From: Desulfocapsa sulfexigens DSM 10523 | GTDB lineage: Bacteria > Desulfobacterota > Desulfobulbia > Desulfobulbales > Desulfocapsaceae | NCBI RefSeq assembly: GCF_000341395.1 | Contig: NC_020304.1 | Coordinates: forward strand, 420,001 to 452,000 | Length of the DNA: 32,000 nucleotides | Reading direction: 5' to 3' | In this document: positions 8,253 through 28,745 of the stretch, one piece after another | Layout of the letters: every line of letters begins with the position of its first letter | How positions within the stretch are numbered: position 1 is the first letter of the stretch | The notes under the pieces: generated by a model | What the model was told of the DNA's origin: nothing | Databases searched by the model: none | The model's input: only the letters and a program-made list of their open reading frames with translations | Translations under genes and position numbers: made by a program

Positions 8253-8453
8253 ATGGCCGAAGGAACAGTTAAATGGTTTAATGATTCAAAAGGTTTTGGT
8301 TTTATAGAAGAAAATGGTGGAAAGGATGTCTTTGTTCATCATTCAGCAATTCAGGGCGACGGTTTCAAGTCTCTCGACGAAGGTGCACGAGTAACCTTTG
8401 ACATTGTCGATGGCCCTAAAGGACCAGCTGCAGAGAATGTTGTCAAACAGTAA
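8253..8453 (+). CDS. cspA: Cold-shock protein, CspA family
   Basis: 66 aa. RNP1 KGFGFI and RNP2 VFVHH motifs. SD AAAGGAG lies upstream of the ATG. Confidence 0.95.
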
Positions 8454-8554: not shown

Positions 8555-8728
8555 TTGGCCAGAACAAATTATTCATACGAGAAACGCCAGAAAGAATTAG
8601 CAAAGAAAAAAAAGAAAGAAGAAAAAAAGCAGCGCAAGATTGCGAAACAGGAGGATACGACCGAGCAAAAAGACGATCTATCTTCGTCTGAAGATGGTAG
8701 TGACAACTCCTTGTCACAGAGCATCTGA
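8555..8728 (+). CDS. Possible small (57-aa) highly charged protein with a TTG start
   Basis: Below the length cutoff of the ORF track. Reading from the TTG at 8555 gives (M)ARTNYSYEKRQKELAKKKKKEEKKQRKIAKQEDTTEQKDDLSSSEDGSDNSLSQSI. SD AGGAAA at 8544-8549 lies 5 nt upstream. Hairpin GTGACAA/TTGTCAC (8699-8716) and a T-run follow near the stop. Confidence 0.35.
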   Translation: MARTNYSYEKRQKELAKKKKKEEKKQRKIAKQEDTTEQKDDLSSSEDGSDNSLSQSI

Positions 8729-9117
8729 CCGTTTTTTTGTTCCACACCTTCAACATCGCCTCTGCTTGAGGCTTGTTCCTCCACTGTCACAATAACGTTC
8801 TCATGACAGACTGCCCTCCCCCCCCTGTGTGGTAAGTACGTAAAATAGCCTCGGTCTTCTGTGGTGGAAATCTTCGTGAATACTGCTCCAAAGGGCGATT
8901 TGTACCCTGCGATCTCTTTTTAAAAGATCCCTGTCACCGATATTTCTGATGCTCTTTTAGATCCAGAAGGAAAGGCCAGCCCCACAATCAGTTCCCCATT
9001 TTCATTTTATCCTTTCGAACAGTTTTAGGTAACAGCCCCCCTTTTTTTACTGGCACCCTGATCTTTTCGGGTTTTATCGCCATCGAATGCTCTCTTTACT
9101 TTTGTTTTCTGCAATCA

Positions 9118-9620
9118 TTGTATTACTATGTGCTCCTTCAAGGAGAATCACGAGATAAAAATGCACTATCGTCCATAGCAAATCTTGTCCTGATATTTGG
9201 ATTTTTATTCGTAATTTCCTGCTATAAAGACCGACAGGATGGAAAATCAAGCTTTATGGTCAGAAAGAACGCGACATCTTTTGTACGGAAGTACTCCCAT
9301 ATACTTGGCAGTGATGATGCGAAGGTGTATATTGTCGAGTTTATAGATCCAGCGTGTGAAACTTGTGCAGCATTTGTCCCCTTTATAAATAGGGAAATTC
9401 CTTTTTCAGGTTGGACTTGATATGGAACGGCTCAAACCGGACATAAAGAATCCTGCAATTACCGCACTTGTTACGCAGGATCTAGCTAACGCCAAAATCT
9501 TAAATGTCCGAAAGACACCTACCTGGACTTTATCAACAACAAACCGTTACAGGAGGTCTGGTTTACGCTGAACTCCGAGAAGCTTATCAGAAAGAGAAGT
9601 GCAGACTTACGGATTAATTA
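9118..9620 (+). pseudogene. Decayed DsbA/thioredoxin_4-family thiol:disulfide oxidoreductase gene
   Basis: The first frame carries a TM segment and the active-site block VYIVEFIDPACETCAAF, then stops at 9418-9420. The +1 frame continues with a C-terminal-type block VGLDMERLKPDIKNPAITALVTQDLANAKILNVRKTPT. A third frame gives YLDFINNKPLQEV...LIRK. About 90 residues normally found between the CXXC and the C-terminal block are missing, and there are at least 2 frameshifts. Confidence 0.55.
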
Positions 9621-9622
9621 AC

Positions 9623-10132
9623 ATGACGAAATCACTATTCTTACCACTCTTGTTTTGTTGTTCTCTTTTACTCCTTGTGGCCTGTGGAGCCCCTCCGGAA
9701 GTGGCGGTGGTTGGAAAACCTGCTCCGGATTTCAGCCTTGTCGACAGGCAGGGAAAAACCTGGACGCTTTCCGAATTAAAGGGCCAGGTGGTCTTTGTCA
9801 ATTTCTGGGCCACCTGGTGTGCTCCTTGTCGCGAAGAGATGCCCGCAATGCAGGAACTGCATGAAGAACTGCCTAAGGACAGATTTAAGATGCTGGCCAT
9901 ACTGAATAAAGATGAACCAGCCCTGGCTGACAGCTTCGCGGCAAAGCTTGGACTCAGCATGCCAATCCTCGATGATCAGGCGAATACGGTTGGCGTAAAA
10001 TATGGCCTCACCGGCGTACCCGAGACTTTTATTATCAATAAAGAAGGCATCGTTGTGAGAAAGTTCATCGGCCCCGCCCAATGGAATTCTCCCAGATACA
10101 TTCAGATGCTGAAGCAATTTATGGATCAATAA
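9623..10132 (+). CDS. TlpA/ResA-family thioredoxin-fold thiol:disulfide oxidoreductase, lipoprotein
   Basis: Lipoprotein signal MTKSLFLPLLFCCSLLLLVAC. Active site WCAPC (Cys codons 9818-9829). Blocks GKPAPDF, VFVNFWATWC and GVPETFIINKEG. I prefer the ATG at 9623 over the GTG at 9599. Confidence 0.85.
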   Translation: MTKSLFLPLLFCCSLLLLVACGAPPEVAVVGKPAPDFSLVDRQGKTWTLSELKGQVVFVNFWATWCAPCREEMPAMQELHEELPKDRFKMLAILNKDEPALADSFAAKLGLSMPILDDQANTVGVKYGLTGVPETFIINKEGIVVRKFIGPAQWNSPRYIQMLKQFMDQ

Positions 10133-10296
10133 TGAAAAAGAAAAACCAATCTCCACCAGTGAAAATCCGCAAAGCTCCATTTATAACAATCTTTGTTTTT
10201 CTAGTTCTTGGGGCCGTGGGGATCAGCCTGGGCGAGCCGTCACGAGTTCTTGAGCAGGCAACCCGAATATGCCTCTCCTGCATAGGAATAGGCTGA
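10132..10296 (+). CDS. 54-aa membrane peptide with a C-terminal CXXC motif
   Basis: MKKKNQSPPVKIRKAPFITIFVFLVLGAVGISLGEPSRVLEQATRICLSCIGIG: basic N-terminus, one TM helix, CLSC at 10270-10281. The ATG overlaps the tlpA-like stop (TAATG, 10130-10134). The stop overlaps the next ATG (TGATG, 10294-10298). From memory, it resembles the short peptides labelled CD1871A-family CXXC proteins. Confidence 0.6.
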   Translation: MKKKNQSPPVKIRKAPFITIFVFLVLGAVGISLGEPSRVLEQATRICLSCIGIG

Positions 10297-11213
10297 TGGA
10301 ATTCGTTCGCAAATGGGTTCAGGCCCTATTTTTCCTGATCACGAACGGCTACTGGAATTTTCCCGTCACCAAAGGAATATACCAGGGGCCCCTCAAAGTA
10401 ATCTGTTCGCCCGGACTGAACTGTTATTCCTGTCCTGCCGCCACAAGTTACTGTCCCCTTGGCGCACTGCAACAACTCATGGGCGGAATCCGCCTGGCTC
10501 TCGAAAATGGCCAGATGTATGTCGGCTTTTATGTAATAGGAGCCATGGGCGCAATTGGCAGCTTTGTCGGCCGGATGGTTTGCGGCTGGGCCTGTCCATT
10601 TGGCCTTTTCCAGGAACTTCTCCATAAAATTCCTTCCCCAAAATTCGGCATCTGGCGACCGTTGCGCTTTATAAAATACGCCCTGTTACTTTTTATGATT
10701 GTGCTGCTGCCCCTCTTTGCAGTCGATGCCTTTGGGTTTGGCCAGACCTGGTTCTGCAAGTATGTCTGCCCAGCAGGTACTCTGGAAGCCGGCTTGCCAA
10801 TGCTTATACTCCAGCCGGATCTTCGAGCGAGCCTGGGCATGCTTTTCCTGAACAAACTTGTTATCCTTATCTTTTTCGTTTCCTGGTCAATTGTAGCTAG
10901 TCGACCTTTCTGTCGAACGGCCTGTCCCCTTGGTGCTTTTTACGCCCTGTTCAGCAAAACAAAACTGGTCAAGCTACGCCTTGACACTGACCGTTGTACC
11001 AACTGCGAGGCCTGCCACCCTGTTTGTCCCATGGGGGTGCATTTCAATGAGTCACCGGACGATATGGAATGTATCTCCTGCCTTGCCTGCAGCAAGGCCT
11101 GTAAGTTTAATGCAATTTCTCTTGAAATTGGGGGTATCCCTCTCAGTAACCAGGCACCTTACCGACCCCAAAAAGGCTCAACTGGAACAATAGCAACTCG
11201 GATCGAAGGATAA
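10296..11213 (+). CDS. Integral-membrane polyferredoxin (NapH/MauN/FixG-like 4Fe-4S binding protein)
   Basis: Several TM helices. Repeated membrane-proximal Cys-Pro motifs (CYSCPAATSYCPLG, WACPFG, CKYVCPAG, CRTACPLG). C-terminal 2x[4Fe-4S] ferredoxin motifs CTNCEACHPVCP and CISCLACSKAC. I prefer the ATG at 10296 (MEFVRKWVQALFF) over the one at 10269. Confidence 0.8.
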   Translation: MEFVRKWVQALFFLITNGYWNFPVTKGIYQGPLKVICSPGLNCYSCPAATSYCPLGALQQLMGGIRLALENGQMYVGFYVIGAMGAIGSFVGRMVCGWACPFGLFQELLHKIPSPKFGIWRPLRFIKYALLLFMIVLLPLFAVDAFGFGQTWFCKYVCPAGTLEAGLPMLILQPDLRASLGMLFLNKLVILIFFVSWSIVASRPFCRTACPLGAFYALFSKTKLVKLRLDTDRCTNCEACHPVCPMGVHFNESPDDMECISCLACSKACKFNAISLEIGGIPLSNQAPYRPQKGSTGTIATRIEG

Positions 11214-11366: not shown

Positions 11367-11382
11367 TGGCTCGGAAATTGCT
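11367..11382 (+). promoter_or_regulatory. Candidate sigma54 (-24/-12) promoter
   Basis: TGGCTC-ggaaa-TTGCT matches the consensus TGGCAC-N5-TTGCW at 10 of 11 positions, with the invariant GG (11368-11369) and GC (11380-11381). It lies ~25 nt upstream of the ATG at 11407 and just upstream of SD AGGAGG (11395-11400). Confidence 0.35.
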
Positions 11383-11406: not shown

Positions 11407-12177
11407 ATGCTTGAATACCAGGTACAAAAAGGCGACACCATAACAGAGGTTACCCGGCGACTGAACACAAACTGGGAAACACTGCGCAAAAACAATCCAG
11501 ATGCAATCGGTCGTTCGACAAAAAACGGAAACTGGTTTTTAAAAGAGGGCTCCATCATAGGGTCGGAAAACTCTTTTGCAAAATCATTACAATATGCCGA
11601 GCAGCAACAAAGGCAGGAAATCGCTGCAGCTAATCCGATTTCCATTCCCAGAGCCAACAGTAAAATTGTATTTCCGATTCCACAACCTCCTCCCAGCACC
11701 CCTCTCCAAGAGGTGGAAAAACAGGGGCGAATAGTTGAACATACCATTCAGGAAGGCGAAACTCTCTGGGGACTTGCAGTGAAAAAATACCATGTCCACG
11801 TCAAGGATATCATGGCAGACAATGGCATAAGTGACCCGACAACATTGCAGATAGGCCAGACTATCAAAATTCGCCTCCCTGAAAGCAGTGGCGAAGAACC
11901 GGTTGTTGCCAGCTGGTACGGCCAGGATTTTCACGGTAAGCCAATGGCCAACGGGGATATCTACGATATGCACGCCGCCACAATCGCCCACAAGGAAATG
12001 CCCCTAGGAACCAGGGTGGAGTTAAAAAACACTGAAACCGGCGAAAAAGTTCGGGCGGTGGTTACAGACCGTGGCCCGTACATTGACGGCAGGGATGTGG
12101 ATCTTTCCTATGGTCTTGCCAAGAAACTCTCGCTTGTGGAACAGGGCGTGGGCAGTCTGGTGATGCGGGTCCTGTGA
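11407..12177 (+). CDS. rlpA: LysM-LysM-RlpA (double-psi beta-barrel) peptidoglycan-binding or lytic transglycosylase-like protein
   Basis: Two LysM blocks (YQVQKGDTITEVTRRL...; HTIQEGETLWGLAVKKY...LQIGQTIKI). RlpA DPBB block ASWYGQDFHGKPMANGDIYDMHAATIAHKEMPLGTRVELKN...VVTDRGPY. Strong SD. An in-frame TAA at 11383-11385 rules out an N-terminal extension. Confidence 0.85.
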   Translation: MLEYQVQKGDTITEVTRRLNTNWETLRKNNPDAIGRSTKNGNWFLKEGSIIGSENSFAKSLQYAEQQQRQEIAAANPISIPRANSKIVFPIPQPPPSTPLQEVEKQGRIVEHTIQEGETLWGLAVKKYHVHVKDIMADNGISDPTTLQIGQTIKIRLPESSGEEPVVASWYGQDFHGKPMANGDIYDMHAATIAHKEMPLGTRVELKNTETGEKVRAVVTDRGPYIDGRDVDLSYGLAKKLSLVEQGVGSLVMRVL

Positions 12178-13308: not shown

Positions 13309-15090
13309 TTATTGCTTCTTTTCCAATCGGGAACACTTTGTATCTTTCGTGTACACCCTCCACATGGGATCCTCATAGCGATCATGGCAGCTTACGCATT
13401 GTCCCACTAAAAGAATACTCCGCAATTCTTCTTTATTAAAGGGACGTAATTCAGGTCTCGAACCATGCTGCAGTGCTTTCCCTTCTATATTCACAAAGGC
13501 ATCAAAGGGAACAGTTTGTCCTTCAAGAGTATCCACGCCCTGATCGAGTGGTGTAAATGACCAGATACCGTTTGTATCAATGGAGACAGTCCCTTCACCA
13601 AGGCCAACGGTCTTCGTTGACTGGTGACAGTCGGCACAGCTTCTTCCTTTGGCCTGTGTGGTATGAGGATTGATGGCTGCCATGGTAAAGCGATTAAAAC
13701 CGCCCTCAACATTGCCATCCTTATCAATAAGAGTCACAACATCCTGGCAGCCGGGCGTCACAATAACCACCTCATCATTCCAGACTGCAAGCATTGGTTT
13801 TTCATAACGAATATAGGATCGCCCCTCTTCCCACATTCCCGGAGTCTCTTCAAGAGTCAGTTTATCCAGATGTTTCTCTGTTTCATCCCGCTTGGCATGG
13901 CAGCCATAACACTGCGGCACCCAGGTTGAATGGCAGGCCTCACAGGTTATCCGCTTGTGACCGCTGAAATCACAAACCCCTTTTTTGGGTCCGACCAGAG
14001 GATAGACCTTGTCGTTGACCCGGCCGGTCATCTGATATTTTTCTTCTTTTTTGAAAATATTTCCCACAGGATCACCTTTTCTGGTGATTCCGGGCTTGTC
14101 AGAATGGCACATTTCACAGGAAATTTCGAGCTGGTCTTCGTAATGTGCGTAACTGGTACCATCCCCCATGATCTCATTACGGGTATGACAATCTATGCAG
14201 GCCATCTCCTTCTGGTGGTGAATATCTTCTGCAATTTCCAGATAAAAGCGCTGCCCTGGAAGTTGCTTCGAACTCATTCCACCATGCTCATAGGGGGTTC
14301 CATAGCCCTCGGATTCAAAGATCCCTGTGTAGGAAATTCCAATGCGTCCTGATCGATTGTGACAGCGAATACAATTTTCTTCAGCCACTTTTTTTATGAT
14401 AAGTGGATGTGCTTTCTTTTTTTCAGTCTTTGTTGCATCACCAAAACCAGCTACTCCCTTCAGTTCCTCTCCTTCGGGCAGCAGATAATGACAGGCAGAA
14501 CAGCCGCCGCCCTTTTCATTGAAGAAATCAGGCGCTCCCGGCAGGTCATTTTTCTGTTTCCAAAGGTGACAGGTGGCACAAAGCTTCCTGAAATAATCGA
14601 GTGCCAGAGAAGTTTCGCCACTGTTTATCAATTGTTCCACGGTAAGATCAGTATCCTGGGAATCGCTTTCCCCCCAGTAGAAGAGGAGGGTTCCGATAAT
14701 GCCGCGATTGGTGGCCATAAGTGAATTCATCACCTTTTTGACATCCGTTGGATGACAGCCCTCAACCCCGCATGTTTTCTCCACAACTCTTAGATCACCA
14801 GGATTCATGACCATGCCCTTATGAGCCTGCTCCTTATCAATAGCCAGAGCATCGCCAAGATGGCAGGAGGCACAGCCAATCACCCGTGGATCATGTGCAG
14901 GATCAAGCTTTTCTTCCCTATGGCAGGAGAGACACATATCGACGCGACCGCTGGTGGTAATATGTACCTGATCCGGTCTCTCTGTCAATACTTCACGAAC
15001 GACAAGCACCCCCACAACAATAAGGAGAAGAAGCCAAAACAGCTGCTTCCTAAACGACCAGTTTGTGTCTAATGTATTTGTTTTACTCAT
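13309..15090 (-). CDS. Membrane-anchored multihaem cytochrome c (11 CXXCH plus 1 CX4CH)
   Basis: N-terminal signal-anchor LFWLLLLIVVGVLVV. Haem motifs in order: CLSCH, CASCH, CGVEGCH, CATCH, CSACH, CIRCH, CIDCH, CEMCH, CEACH, CYGCH, CADCH, CVSCH. The ATG lies 3 nt downstream of the nadE stop. Confidence 0.9.
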   Translation of the reverse strand: MSKTNTLDTNWSFRKQLFWLLLLIVVGVLVVREVLTERPDQVHITTSGRVDMCLSCHREEKLDPAHDPRVIGCASCHLGDALAIDKEQAHKGMVMNPGDLRVVEKTCGVEGCHPTDVKKVMNSLMATNRGIIGTLLFYWGESDSQDTDLTVEQLINSGETSLALDYFRKLCATCHLWKQKNDLPGAPDFFNEKGGGCSACHYLLPEGEELKGVAGFGDATKTEKKKAHPLIIKKVAEENCIRCHNRSGRIGISYTGIFESEGYGTPYEHGGMSSKQLPGQRFYLEIAEDIHHQKEMACIDCHTRNEIMGDGTSYAHYEDQLEISCEMCHSDKPGITRKGDPVGNIFKKEEKYQMTGRVNDKVYPLVGPKKGVCDFSGHKRITCEACHSTWVPQCYGCHAKRDETEKHLDKLTLEETPGMWEEGRSYIRYEKPMLAVWNDEVVIVTPGCQDVVTLIDKDGNVEGGFNRFTMAAINPHTTQAKGRSCADCHQSTKTVGLGEGTVSIDTNGIWSFTPLDQGVDTLEGQTVPFDAFVNIEGKALQHGSRPELRPFNKEELRSILLVGQCVSCHDRYEDPMWRVYTKDTKCSRLEKKQ

Positions 15091-26414: not shown

Positions 26415-26903
26415 ATGAAAATTGCAATCACCGCAACAGGAAACACCTTAGATTCCATGGTTGACCCTCGCTTTGGCAGAGCTGCATGGTTCCTTATTAT
26501 AGATACTGAAACAAAAGAGCTACTTCAGGCAATCAATAATATAGCAGGAAAAGAAGCTGCCCATGGCGCTGGAATCAGTGCAGCAGCACAGGTTGCAGAC
26601 ATCGGAGTGGAAGCCCTGCTCACCGGAAGAGTTGGTCCCAAGGCCCTGCCCGTTCTTGAAAAAGCAGGTGTTAAAGCAGTAAATGATGTCAGCGGTAGCG
26701 TACGCGATGCCATGGCAAAATATTCCGGAACGACGGGATCACCCCCTAAAACTGAAGAGCCATCACAGCCATCTCCATCTCCTACCCAGGGGCAGGGCCA
26801 AGGCCAGGGAAGAGGAGAGGGCTGCGGCTGTGGCAGAGGACAGGGGCAAGGCAGGGGGATGGGACAAGGCAAAGGTCAGGGACGCGGACAGTGTCGTCGA
26901 TAA
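26415..26903 (+). CDS. NifX/NifB-family (dinitrogenase FeMo-cofactor-biosynthesis-domain) protein with a Gly/Gln/Arg/Cys-rich C-terminal tail
   Basis: N-terminal 100 aa: MKIAITATGNTLDSMVDPRFGRAAWFLIIDTET...HGAGISAAAQVADIGVEALLTGRVGPKALPVLEKAGVKAV, typical of COG1433-type proteins. The tail runs from 26724. Strong SD AGGAGG. Confidence 0.8.
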   Translation: MKIAITATGNTLDSMVDPRFGRAAWFLIIDTETKELLQAINNIAGKEAAHGAGISAAAQVADIGVEALLTGRVGPKALPVLEKAGVKAVNDVSGSVRDAMAKYSGTTGSPPKTEEPSQPSPSPTQGQGQGQGRGEGCGCGRGQGQGRGMGQGKGQGRGQCRR

Positions 26904-26950
26904 GCCGCTGTAAAAAAATAACATAGCCAATAAATCAACCGAATCGGCAT

Positions 26951-27004
26951 AAGGAGCCGTAACGAAATCAATATAAATGGCCAGGTTATTTCGTAACGGT
27001 TCCT
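26951..27004 (+). other. Long imperfect hairpin in the intergenic space between the NifX-like gene and the first MinD-ferredoxin gene
   Basis: AAGGAGCCGTAACGAAAT (26951-26968) pairs with ATTTCGTAACGGTTCCT (26988-27004). About 16 pairs with one A:A mismatch and one G:U, around a 19-nt loop. No T-run follows. Confidence 0.5.
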
Positions 27005-27030
27005 AAGCAGACAGCAAGGAGAGTAGCAGT

Positions 27031-27870
27031 ATGCAAATAGCAGTCGGCAGCGGGAAAGGTGGAACCGGAAAGACCACTATCTCAACCAGCCTGGCTCTCA
27101 GTGCAGGCACAGATGTTCAGTACCTGGACTGTGATGTGGAAGAGCCAAACGGACATATCTTTCTCAAACCGAAACTCACTCACAGAGAAACTGTTGTCGT
27201 CACTGTTCCCCGGCTGGACGAGTCACGATGCACAGCCTGTGGAAAATGCCGGGACATTTGTGCATTCAATGCAATTGCTCAGTTTGGCAAAACGGTAATG
27301 ATATTTCCAGAGATGTGCCATTCCTGCCTTGGCTGTTTCAGGGTATGTGAGGAGGATGCACTCATCGAAGACACACGGGAAATTGGTATTCTCGAATCTG
27401 GAATGGCTGGTGATATTCATTTCGTTCATGGCCGTGTCCGGATCGGTGAGGCGATGGGCGTCCCGCTCTTAAAAGCCGTCAAACACAAGGCCGAACAAGA
27501 CAGGCTGACCATCATCGATGCTCCCCCGGGGACATCATGCCCTTTTGTGGAAAGTGTCAATGATGCCGACTATGTGATCTTGGTAACCGAGCCCACACCC
27601 TTTGGCCTTCATGACCTGAAACTTGCTGCCACGGTTCTCAAGAACTTCAAGATTCCCAGTGGTGTAATTATTAATCGATCCGATCTCGGTGACGACAGGG
27701 TACAGCGCTATTGTGATTCTGAGAACATTCCTGTTCTCCTTGAGATTCCATTCCAGCGTGCCATTGCAGAAGGCTATGCACGGGGTATAAATCTTGTGGA
27801 CACTGTACCTGAGCTACGCACTGTTTTCAGTGACCTTCTAACTCGGATTGCCTTTGAGGTAGCCCAATAA
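27031..27870 (+). CDS. MinD/ParA-superfamily P-loop ATPase with an inserted 2x[4Fe-4S] ferredoxin domain (COG1149 type)
   Basis: Deviant Walker A GSGKGGTGKTT, DCDVEEPN, ferredoxin motifs CTACGKCRDIC and CHSCLGCFRVC, Walker B-like IIDAPPGTSC. SD AAGGAGAG. Confidence 0.85.
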   Translation: MQIAVGSGKGGTGKTTISTSLALSAGTDVQYLDCDVEEPNGHIFLKPKLTHRETVVVTVPRLDESRCTACGKCRDICAFNAIAQFGKTVMIFPEMCHSCLGCFRVCEEDALIEDTREIGILESGMAGDIHFVHGRVRIGEAMGVPLLKAVKHKAEQDRLTIIDAPPGTSCPFVESVNDADYVILVTEPTPFGLHDLKLAATVLKNFKIPSGVIINRSDLGDDRVQRYCDSENIPVLLEIPFQRAIAEGYARGINLVDTVPELRTVFSDLLTRIAFEVAQ

Positions 27871-28745
27871 TGGAACAGACAATTAAAGAAGTATTGATCC
27901 TCAGCGGCAAAGGCGGTACCGGGAAGACCAGTATCGTTGGATCCTTTGCTCATCTGGCAGAAAACAAAATTCTCGTGGACTGTGACGTTGACGCGTCCGA
28001 CCTCCACCTCCTTCTCGCCCCAAAGCCAACTGAGACCCATGACTTCAAGTCCGGAGTCAAGGCCCGGGTAGAGGCGGATAAGTGCAGCGGTTGTGGCATG
28101 TGTGCTGAGCTCTGCCAATTTGAATCAATTACCATGGGGGAAACTGCGGTCATTTCACCACTCAACTGTGAAGGATGCGGTGTCTGCGCCCACTTCTGTC
28201 CGGAAGAAGCCATTGTACTCCAAGAGAATCATTGCGGTTCCTGGTACATTGCAGATACCGCCTACGGGCCTCTTGTTCACGCCCAGCTTTTCGCAGGGGA
28301 GGAAAACTCGGGCAAGTTGGTCTCCCACATCAAAAATCAGGCAAGACAGCTCGCTGAAACAACAAATACCGGTCTGATCCTGATCGATGGCGCTCCTGGG
28401 GTGGGATGTCCGGTCATCGCATCACTCTCCAATGTGGATCTTGCCGTCGTAATAACCGAACCTACCCTATCCGGAAAACACGACCTGGATCGCATCCTTG
28501 ACCTCACCGAACACTTCAAAATCCCTGCACTGGTTTGCATAAACAAGTGGGATCTTCACTCCGAGATGAGCGATAGCATAGAGAAATCCTGCAACGATCG
28601 CGGAGCTAACGTTCTTGGAAAAATCCCATTTGATCGCCAGGTTATTACCTGCCAGATTCAGGGAGTGCCGGTGACAGCTGATGATACCAGCCTGGCCGGG
28701 TACTCAATTAAGGCGATATGGAAAAAACTAAAGGAACACCTATAG
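27870..28745 (+). CDS. Second MinD/ParA-ferredoxin ATPase, paralogue of the preceding gene
   Basis: SGKGGTGKTS, DCDVDASD, CSGCGMCAELC and CEGCGVCAHFC, LILIDGAPGVGCP. The ATG overlaps the upstream stop (TAATG, 27868-27872). Confidence 0.85.
   Translation: MEQTIKEVLILSGKGGTGKTSIVGSFAHLAENKILVDCDVDASDLHLLLAPKPTETHDFKSGVKARVEADKCSGCGMCAELCQFESITMGETAVISPLNCEGCGVCAHFCPEEAIVLQENHCGSWYIADTAYGPLVHAQLFAGEENSGKLVSHIKNQARQLAETTNTGLILIDGAPGVGCPVIASLSNVDLAVVITEPTLSGKHDLDRILDLTEHFKIPALVCINKWDLHSEMSDSIEKSCNDRGANVLGKIPFDRQVITCQIQGVPVTADDTSLAGYSIKAIWKKLKEHL

Follow-up and report, generated by a model that had tools for sequence, protein, structure and literature searches.

Three overlapping genes in a 32,000-nucleotide stretch of the Desulfocapsa sulfexigens DSM 10523 genome (the window, positions 420,001 to 452,000 of contig NC_020304.1, numbered here from its first letter) encode a TlpA-like thioredoxin-fold lipoprotein, a 54-residue CXXC microprotein of the CD1871A family, and a membrane polyferredoxin. 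The trio is real and is not an artefact of the D. sulfexigens genome. We propose, with a confidence that stops slightly short of even, that it forms one conserved envelope redox module of strict anaerobes, in which a polyferredoxin-microprotein complex would carry cytoplasmic electrons to the exported lipoprotein. More tentatively, the polyferredoxin and the microprotein may represent an unrecognized class of transmembrane disulfide reductase. In such an enzyme, iron-sulfur (Fe-S) clusters rather than a cysteine cascade would carry ferredoxin-level electrons, and the microprotein would contribute two cysteines to the outer catalytic center that reduces exported thioredoxins, which would make the pair a second, oxygen-sensitive answer beside DsbD/CcdA. 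The three genes are given below with the evidence for each description.

9623–10132, + strand: TlpA/ResA-type thioredoxin-fold lipoprotein, 169 amino acids (open reading frame (ORF), signal peptide, lipobox LLLVAC, WCAPC motif, Pfam, PDB relatives, synteny)
10132–10296, + strand: CD1871A-family microprotein, 54 amino acids (NF040920 score, RefSeq name, conservation, AlphaFold 2 (AF2) secondary structure)
10296–11213, + strand: membrane polyferredoxin, 305 amino acids, with four predicted membrane helices (Pfam, cysteine invariance, hydropathy and lysine-plus-arginine (K+R) bias, AF2, synteny)

Organization of the three genes

The three ORFs match, base for base, those given in a preliminary description of the window, and the 1-nt overlaps between them lie exactly where that description placed them. 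At the junction between the lipoprotein and microprotein genes (TAATG, 10130–10134), TAA and ATG share the A at 10132; at the junction between the microprotein and polyferredoxin genes (TGATG, 10294–10298), TGA and ATG share the A at 10296. These arrangements show tight coupling of the three genes. A fixed stoichiometry of the products, which had also been read from them, is not shown, as overlapping stop and start codons indicate coupling only.

Two of the start codons required a choice. The lipoprotein ORF has a longer form beginning at GTG 9599, and the ATG at 9623 is preferred because the relatives are 168–169 residues long. For the polyferredoxin, the start at 10296 was chosen over an upstream ATG at 10269 because the N-termini of the family fit the former. 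Around the operon, sigma-70 promoter-like matches are at chance level (4 versus 4.5 expected), and terminator-like matches (7 versus 3.5 ± 1.9 expected) give no usable operon boundary.

The trio is conserved across anaerobic phyla

To survey the module, the last 12 codons of the microprotein gene plus its stop codon were used as a pattern against one genome per species (185,579 species, a 596-Gb collection). This degenerate 39-base pattern, A-x-x-I-C-L-x-C-I-G-I-G-stop, gave at least 120 matches, as compared with about 0.2 expected by chance under a uniform base composition. All of the 120 matches listed end a small ORF with a single membrane helix. Counts of loci refer throughout to the matches listed; the neighbors were identified by our own ORF calling and phmmer, and the denominators are the loci with enough flanking DNA.

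The pairing of microprotein and polyferredoxin is nearly obligate: the polyferredoxin gene directly follows the microprotein gene in 103 of 109 usable loci. With the polyferredoxin start set by a nearest-ATG rule, the two genes lie between −8 and +20 nt apart in 93 of 113 cases, with an overlap in 61. Linkage to a thioredoxin is frequent, as a TlpA-like gene adjoins the pair in 56 of 79 loci (71%), on the upstream side in 48 and next to the end of the polyferredoxin gene in 8. Starting instead from the polyferredoxin, all four look-ups (Paraclostridium, Inediibacterium, Faecalispora, and Clostridium ganghwense) returned a Redoxin gene, an ORF of 45–52 residues ending in CLECIGIG, and the polyferredoxin gene, with an 8-nt overlap. 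The three-gene synteny is thus borne out across phyla, both in the listed loci and in these reciprocal look-ups. No further neighbor family is conserved around the pair in the listed loci, where the genes farther out are mixed and include transporters, glycosidases, kinases, and regulators. The flanking DNA of the roughly 120 listed loci holds CcdA at no more than two distinct places, and the pair therefore takes the position that CcdA usually holds beside such thioredoxins.

The carriers among the listed matches belong to the Bacillota (Lachnospiraceae, Oscillospiraceae, Clostridiaceae, Peptoniphilaceae, Negativicutes, and Syntrophomonas), the Spirochaetota (Treponema and other Spirochaetaceae), the Synergistota (Synergistaceae), the Bacteroidota (a Bacteroides sp.), and the Desulfobacterota (Desulfobulbales, including Ca. 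Electronema). All carriers named in the survey are anaerobes, a restriction that suits an oxygen-sensitive Fe-S device. In Clostridioides difficile 630, the region of CD18710, the namesake of the microprotein family, is listed in a conjugative transposon (PMC12772354), and the module may be horizontally mobile in some Clostridia. The literature mentions of CD1871 that we found concern only this C. difficile locus in a conjugative transposon or the name of an ATP-binding cassette permease.

Desulfocapsa and related metagenome-assembled genomes (MAGs) also hold a second, paralogous microprotein-polyferredoxin pair (L013, L033, L037, and L106), whose microprotein ends in ICLDCIGIG. It lies behind parA-parB (seen in L013 and matched in gene size in the other three) and an MTH1187/YkoF-like (Thiamine_BP) gene. 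None of its neighbors is a TlpA-like gene, and in two of the four loci it is followed by a gene for a bacterial SH3-domain protein.

The CXXC microprotein

The microprotein, MKKKNQSPPVKIRKAPFITIFVFLVLGAVGISLGEPSRVLEQATRICLSCIGIG, ends in CLSCIGIG and scores 36.9 bits (E 2.4e-9) against the NCBIfam model NF040920, CD1871A family CXXC motif-containing protein, above its curated cut-off of 32; residues 19–54 align to profile positions 3–38 of 38. In its small size, its single membrane helix, and the C-L-x-C-I-G-I-G at its C-terminus, it has the form of that family (logo from 218 members), and the D. sulfexigens RefSeq protein, 100% identical to it, already carries the CD1871A family name. NF040920 is a naming model only, and our literature search for the CD1871A family found no paper on it and no assigned function.

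The preliminary description had made its proposal depend on the small ORF being conserved, and conserved it is. There are 74 close homologues in which the C-terminal half is nearly invariant, reading GISLGEPSRVLEQAxQICLSCIGIG with few exceptions in the 36 of them that were aligned. A search with the profile among 1.84 billion representative proteins matched at least 408 clusters at 50% identity (E ≤ 0.001), which have in common a basic N-terminus, a single membrane helix, and a CLxCIGIG that is invariant at the C-terminus. In the 150 profile matches listed, the length ranges from 36 to 149 residues, mostly 43–77, and the alignment nearly always reaches the last one or two residues. Judged by these sequence comparisons, the small ORF is a genuine conserved gene.

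In a tabulation of 218 family members, neither cysteine varies. Across the same set, the 15 residues that precede the membrane helix have a net charge of +3.7 and the part beyond it one of −0.5, and the tail that follows the helix is 21.6 ± 1.3 residues long. The C-terminal CXXC is accordingly predicted to face outward, on the same side as the lipoprotein and as loops 1 and 3 of the polyferredoxin. The AF2 secondary structure comprises a helix at about residues 14–33, a break or turn at GEP, and a second helix at residues 37–50 that contains Cys47 and Cys50, followed by IGIG. The two cysteines could equally be cluster ligands rather than a disulfide shuttle.

The membrane polyferredoxin

Each predicted membrane helix of the polyferredoxin is followed by a Cys...CP-x-G motif: C37-x5-C43-x2-C46-P-x5-C53-P-x-G, C96-x3-C100-P-F-G, C154-x3-C158-P-A-G, and C206-x3-C210-P-L-G. 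Two ferredoxin motifs, C234-x2-C-x2-C-x3-CP and C259-x2-C-x2-C-x3-C, make up the C-terminal part, so that the four CxxCP/CPxG motifs and two [4Fe-4S] motifs counted in the preliminary description were counted correctly. Across 100–116 homologues of about 40–90% identity, the 18 cysteines vary little or not at all. The family is large, its profile matching at least 7,918 clusters at 90% identity.

Pfam assigns Fer4_5 (PF12801) in three stretches, with 73.4 bits, and Fer4 (PF00037) in two. The repeated unit of a membrane helix and C-x3-C-P, together with the C-terminal ferredoxin domain, places the protein in the Fer4_5 superfamily. At this superfamily level the earlier label "NapH-like" stands, but the protein is not a NapH proper: it scores 68.2 bits against TIGR02163 (cut-off 213) and 54.1 bits against NF007013 (cut-off 234), and the best NapH/MauN stretch spans only residues 181–277. 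Against the CcoG/RdxA/FixG model TIGR02745, it reaches 25.3 bits (cut-off 316.7), through the ferredoxin motifs only. Neither NapG/NapAB nor mau genes were found among the window ORFs scanned with Pfam or among the conserved neighbors in the 120 listed loci. A Pfam scan of the three proteins of the trio at E ≤ 1 yielded no DsbD_TM (PF02683), no domain of the ferredoxin:thioredoxin reductase (FTR) catalytic subunit (CPC...CPC...CHC), and no CCG domain. No fusion of the polyferredoxin with the microprotein or with a thioredoxin was seen among the 240 homologues listed, the longer proteins being internal duplications or assembly artefacts.

Family-averaged hydropathy gives three strong membrane helices and one weak one. 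The K+R density is 0.41 at the N-terminus, 0.16 in loop 2, and 0.13 in the C-terminal region, as compared with 0.06 in each of loops 1 and 3. By the positive-inside rule, Cys96, Cys100, Cys206, Cys210, and the ferredoxin domain are predicted to face the cytoplasm, while Cys37, Cys43, Cys46, Cys53, Cys154, and Cys158 are predicted to face outward. This topology would put the microprotein CXXC on the same, outer side as the lipoprotein and the two cysteine-bearing polyferredoxin loops, in keeping with the preliminary description, which required that it not lie on the side opposite to both partners. The AF2 model of the polyferredoxin has a mean predicted local distance difference test (pLDDT) score of 85, with values below 50 in the four-cysteine loop at residues 36–50. 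Low model confidence confined to this outer loop fits a site that would be completed by a partner or a cofactor. In a covariation analysis of microprotein and polyferredoxin, 30 of the 60 top pairs fall in loop 1, which holds 14% of the variable columns, and none in loop 2; this may be taken as weak support, confounded by phylogeny and clade structure (S versus E at the CLxC position).

The TlpA-like lipoprotein

The first protein of the trio carries a signal peptide with the lipobox LLLVAC and, within the motif FWATWCAPC, the active site WCAPC. It matches the Pfam families AhpC-TSA (PF00578, 102 bits) and Redoxin (PF08534, 92 bits) and falls under the curated equivalog cut-offs for TlpA (NF047696, 94.5 versus 230 bits), ResA (NF002854, 112.9 versus 170 bits), and DsbE-CcmG (TIGR00385, 81.1 versus 123 bits). 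These scores place the 169-residue lipoprotein in the wider TlpA-like redoxin group but in none of the three equivalog families. It combines the thioredoxin fold, the W-C-x-x-C motif, and the export/anchoring signal of the TlpA-like extracytoplasmic thioredoxin-fold reductases, and its nearest solved relatives in the PDB are 3KCM, ResA, TlpA, CycY, pneumococcal Etrx, and DsbE/CcmG. ResA, TlpA, CycY, Etrx, and DsbE-CcmG are exported reductases normally kept reduced by CcdA/DsbD. At the surveyed loci, an x-C-x-P-C motif and a signal peptide with its lipobox recur in nearly every TlpA-like partner. Taken with the solved relatives, these motifs support a partner of the probable reductase type, and the periplasmic WCAPC reductase-type thioredoxin of the preliminary description is upheld.

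Many of the Firmicute and Treponema partners (L048, L064, L092, and L124–L127) are longer lipoproteins of 340–444 residues, in which a further extracytoplasmic domain at the N-terminus precedes the redoxin domain. The partner at L085 (1543–2685) is likewise a long lipoprotein and has two redoxin domains in tandem.

A proposed electron relay

The polyferredoxin and the CD1871A microprotein would form a two-subunit membrane complex, the cytoplasmic 2×[4Fe-4S] domain of which would accept low-potential electrons from ferredoxin or a ferredoxin-linked enzyme. The electrons would next reach the motifs with Cys96, Cys100, Cys206, and Cys210, where helices 2 and 4 end on the inner side of the membrane, and then cross to an outer-face redox center made up of loop 1 (Cys37, Cys43, Cys46, and Cys53), loop 3 (Cys154 and Cys158), and the two C-terminal cysteines of the microprotein. 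There, the CXXC disulfide of the TlpA-like lipoprotein would be reduced, as the Fe-S cluster does in FTR, and the reduced lipoprotein would in turn reduce envelope proteins, so that the module would act as a functional, non-homologous stand-in for CcdA/DsbD. Eight cysteines, six of the polyferredoxin and two of the microprotein, are predicted to lie at the outer face and four at the inner face; the complex could hold either cubane clusters or cluster-plus-disulfide sites of the FTR type, both of which fit these numbers. The relay that we infer here agrees with ORF conservation, synteny, and predicted topology, the points on which the preliminary description had let it stand or fall. A quinol, which had been considered there as an alternative electron donor, is unlikely for thermodynamic reasons, and many of the carriers are fermenters poor in quinones; we reject this variant.

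Several observations weigh against the relay. The first membrane helix of the polyferredoxin is weakly hydrophobic on family average, and the topology is for this reason a prediction. In fold and sequence searches of the PDB, the membrane domain found no match, only the ferredoxin domain (residues 213–285) being covered. Both microprotein cysteines lie inside a predicted helix, a geometry more favorable to metal ligation than to a classical CXXC disulfide, and we know of no assembly route for Fe-S clusters on the outer face. A TlpA-like gene is not adjacent in 29% of the loci, nor beside the paralogous pair of the Desulfocapsa MAGs; TlpA is therefore not the sole partner, or it is encoded elsewhere. 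Finally, a related metagenomic locus, recovered from two samples (L002 and L003), carries the same operon and, 1.3 kb downstream of it and past the sigma-54 regulator, a thioredoxin-like gene and a CcdA (DsbD_TM) gene (8782–9883). Since CcdA and the trio operon are found at one locus, the two systems coexist in this organism, and the module is not a simple replacement in genomes that lack CcdA. No CcdA-like sequence was found within the 32-kb window by Pfam scans or by tblastn with a CcdA; the CcdA/DsbD independence suggested in the preliminary description is nevertheless not supported, given the CcdA gene at L002/L003.

Decayed dsbB and dsbA genes upstream of the trio

In close Desulfobulbaceae metagenomic relatives, the operon order is histidine kinase, DsbB, DsbA, TlpA-like lipoprotein, microprotein, polyferredoxin, and sigma-54 response regulator. 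Intact dsbB and dsbA lie just upstream of the trio in L001, L003, L053, and L087, and the kinase and the regulator flank it in L001 and L003; neither of these two is present in the D. sulfexigens window, where only remnants of the dsb genes are found:

9060–9158, + strand: dsbB remnant, the last ~33 codons only (tblastn with the intact DsbB of the relative L001)
9157–9526, + strand: decayed dsbA of the Thioredoxin_4 family (tblastn with the L001 DsbA, in two pieces; Pfam Thioredoxin_4 on the first piece)

The dsbB remnant corresponds to residues 114–146 of the L001 DsbB (67% identity, E 5e-6). The dsbA pieces match residues 2–80 of the L001 DsbA in frame 1 and residues 140–188 in frame 2, which leaves the N-terminal 80 codons and the C-terminal 49 codons in different frames, with about 60 internal codons lost. 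As the trio is intact while dsbB and dsbA have decayed, it is maintained independently of the oxidizing DsbA/DsbB arm.

Alternative functions

The strongest rival, which we consider unlikely, reverses the dependence. In this account, the lipoprotein matures the complex by reducing the outer cysteines of the polyferredoxin and the microprotein for insertion of an Fe-S or metal cofactor, and the complex itself, as a conduit of the NapH type, serves a different extracytoplasmic acceptor that is encoded elsewhere. ResA and CcmG act on apocytochrome c and TlpA on ScoI/CoxB, and relatives of these proteins are known to reduce cysteines that later bind a cofactor. The lack of an adjacent TlpA at 29% of the loci and beside the paralogous pair also speaks for this account, and at the L002/L003 locus, TlpA could be fed by the CcdA and thioredoxin encoded nearby. 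The eight outer-face cysteines are the number that two cubane clusters require, and the helical position of the microprotein cysteines in the AF2 model fits the same idea. Against it, no candidate for the terminal acceptor is conserved beside the pair, CcdA is almost never linked, which would leave TlpA without a nearby reductant, and a dedicated thioredoxin for one small complex in 71% of the loci would be unusual. Another rival is metal handling, which we hold to be quite improbable: the polyferredoxin and the microprotein would be a CcoG-like reductase of Cu(II), another metal, or a metalloid at the membrane surface, and the lipoprotein would be a chaperone or reductase resembling Sco/TlpA. 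In favor of this are weak similarities to CcoG and SCO1/SenC, the metal binding typical of peptides with a C-terminal CXXC, and genes for CsoR, cation efflux, ArsR/ArsP, MerR, or TerD near some loci. Yet the CcoG score is 25 bits against a cut-off of 317 and comes from the ferredoxin motifs alone, the SCO1 match reflects generic thioredoxin-fold similarity, and the metal-related neighbors are sporadic and heterogeneous. Most carriers are, moreover, fermentative Clostridia, which generally lack heme-copper oxidases.

Electrons might also flow the other way. In a DsbB-like oxidizing system, they would pass from the thioredoxin-like protein via the microprotein and the polyferredoxin into the cytoplasm and so allow disulfide formation in quinone-poor anaerobes. 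The Desulfobulbaceae relatives do hold the trio in one operon with dsbB and dsbA, and many carriers are thought to lack quinones. Electron transfer from a thiol/disulfide couple to ferredoxin-type clusters would, however, be uphill, and the motifs and relatives of the partner are of the TlpA/ResA type (C-x-P-C), not of the DsbA type. DsbB and DsbA, where present, already provide the oxidizing arm, and their decay in the window beside an intact trio argues for an independent, complementary role, so that we give this direction very little credence. Least probable of all is that the small ORF, instead of encoding a subunit, is a regulatory leader or codes for a precursor from which a modified peptide of ribosomal origin is made. 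A short ORF with cysteines, placed directly before the gene of an Fe-S protein, recalls SCIFF/radical-SAM pairs, but Pfam finds no radical-SAM domain in the polyferredoxin, the membrane helix is conserved and so is the tail over its whole length, unlike in leader/core precursors, and no protease or exporter gene is conserved nearby. On these three grounds, the precursor reading was rejected.

Relation to known systems

The reduction of exported thioredoxin-like proteins in strict anaerobes is, to our knowledge, understood only via cysteine relays of the CcdA/DsbD type. With CcdA, DsbD, and ScsB, the trio shares the kind of client, a membrane-tethered TlpA/ResA-type thioredoxin lipoprotein, the position of the thioredoxin gene beside that of the membrane partner, and the proposed task of bringing cytoplasmic reducing power across the membrane. 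There is no homology between them: the membrane partner of the trio has two ferredoxin clusters and 10 further cysteines in place of two transmembrane cysteines, an extra 54-residue subunit is needed, and the likely donor is at the ferredoxin level rather than a thioredoxin.

NapH-like proteins have been proposed to be modular transmembrane electron conduits to flavinylated extracytosolic partners (Méheust et al. 2021, PMC8238504). The polyferredoxin resembles NapH, MauN, NosR, PceC, and CcoG in its helices ending in C-x3-C-P, its cytoplasmic C-terminal 2×[4Fe-4S] domain, and the conduit role proposed for such proteins (PMC8238504). It differs from them in scoring far below every family cut-off and in two features predicted at the outer face, a four-cysteine loop and a third C-x3-C-P motif. 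It also lacks a flavin mononucleotide-binding domain, and NapG, NapA, NosZ, and reductive dehalogenase are absent from the window and from the conserved neighbors, a CXXC microprotein and a thioredoxin being paired with it instead. The module may thus be described as a conduit of the NapH type that has a microprotein as an obligate subunit and a thioredoxin as its acceptor. FTR and HdrB are alike in the proposed chemistry only, in which one-electron Fe-S carriers reduce a two-electron disulfide at a cysteine-flanked cluster; both are soluble or peripheral and unrelated in sequence, whereas the module spans the membrane. A further parallel is DUF4266 of the DsbD/flavinylation clusters (PMC8238504), also a very small envelope protein with a C-terminal cysteine pair, encoded beside a thioredoxin-like protein and a transmembrane carrier. 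Its motif is CXC and not CLxCIGIG, it is secreted and not membrane-anchored, and its partner is DsbD and not a polyferredoxin. Our literature search found no description of the module or of a NapH-like protein coupled to a thioredoxin and a CXXC microprotein, consistent with the statement in the preliminary description that no experimental account of such a relay was known.

The module is conserved and very widespread, and it connects a membrane Fe-S protein and a microprotein, its obligate subunit, with an exported thioredoxin; the three genes merit annotation and study as one unit. If the relay is correct, it would constitute a new way to move reducing power across a membrane and would link envelope thiol homeostasis directly to the ferredoxin pool. 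It would also provide the first function for a catalogued but unstudied microprotein family and the first defined acceptor for one branch of the poorly understood NapH-like superfamily, and its range would extend widely over anaerobes of gut and sediment, among them Clostridia, Treponema, and relatives of cable bacteria. Culturable carriers exist, among them Paraclostridium bifermentans, C. difficile 630 (the namesake strain of the family), and Treponema species.

Other genes of the window

The 12-heme cytochrome gene to which the preliminary description drew attention lies at 13309–15090 on the − strand and encodes 593 amino acids with an N-terminal membrane anchor. Its 12 heme sites are confirmed (11 CxxCH and one CGVEGCH), but a link to the trio is not conserved: the gene is not a neighbor of the trio in any related locus examined, and its proximity is coincidental. 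Clostridia as a rule lack c-type cytochromes, and because most carriers are Clostridia, cytochrome maturation is not the general role of the module. On this ground, and on the absence of synteny of the cytochrome gene in the relatives, that role was rejected.

The sigma-54 regulator found in relatives of the locus motivated a scan for sigma-54 promoters, which gave 19 matches window-wide versus 17.3 expected, a non-significant excess. One site downstream of the trio, TGGCTCGGAAATTGCT (11367–11382, + strand), is one base off the −24/−12 consensus, such matches being at chance level across the window; it ends 25 nt before the start codon of a LysM/RlpA-like gene (11407–12177). Upstream of the dsb remnants, a 66-residue ORF (8253–8453, + strand) reads as a putative cold-shock protein of the CspA type and is followed by a lysine-rich ORF of 57 residues (8555–8728, + strand), which begins MARTNYSYEKRQKELAKKKKKEEKKQRK. 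Farther downstream, the region 26415–28745 (+ strand) encodes a NifX/NifB-like Nitro_FeMo-Co domain protein and then two MinD/ParA-type NTPases with 4Fe-4S ferredoxin inserts, possibly an Fe-S or cofactor-handling cluster.

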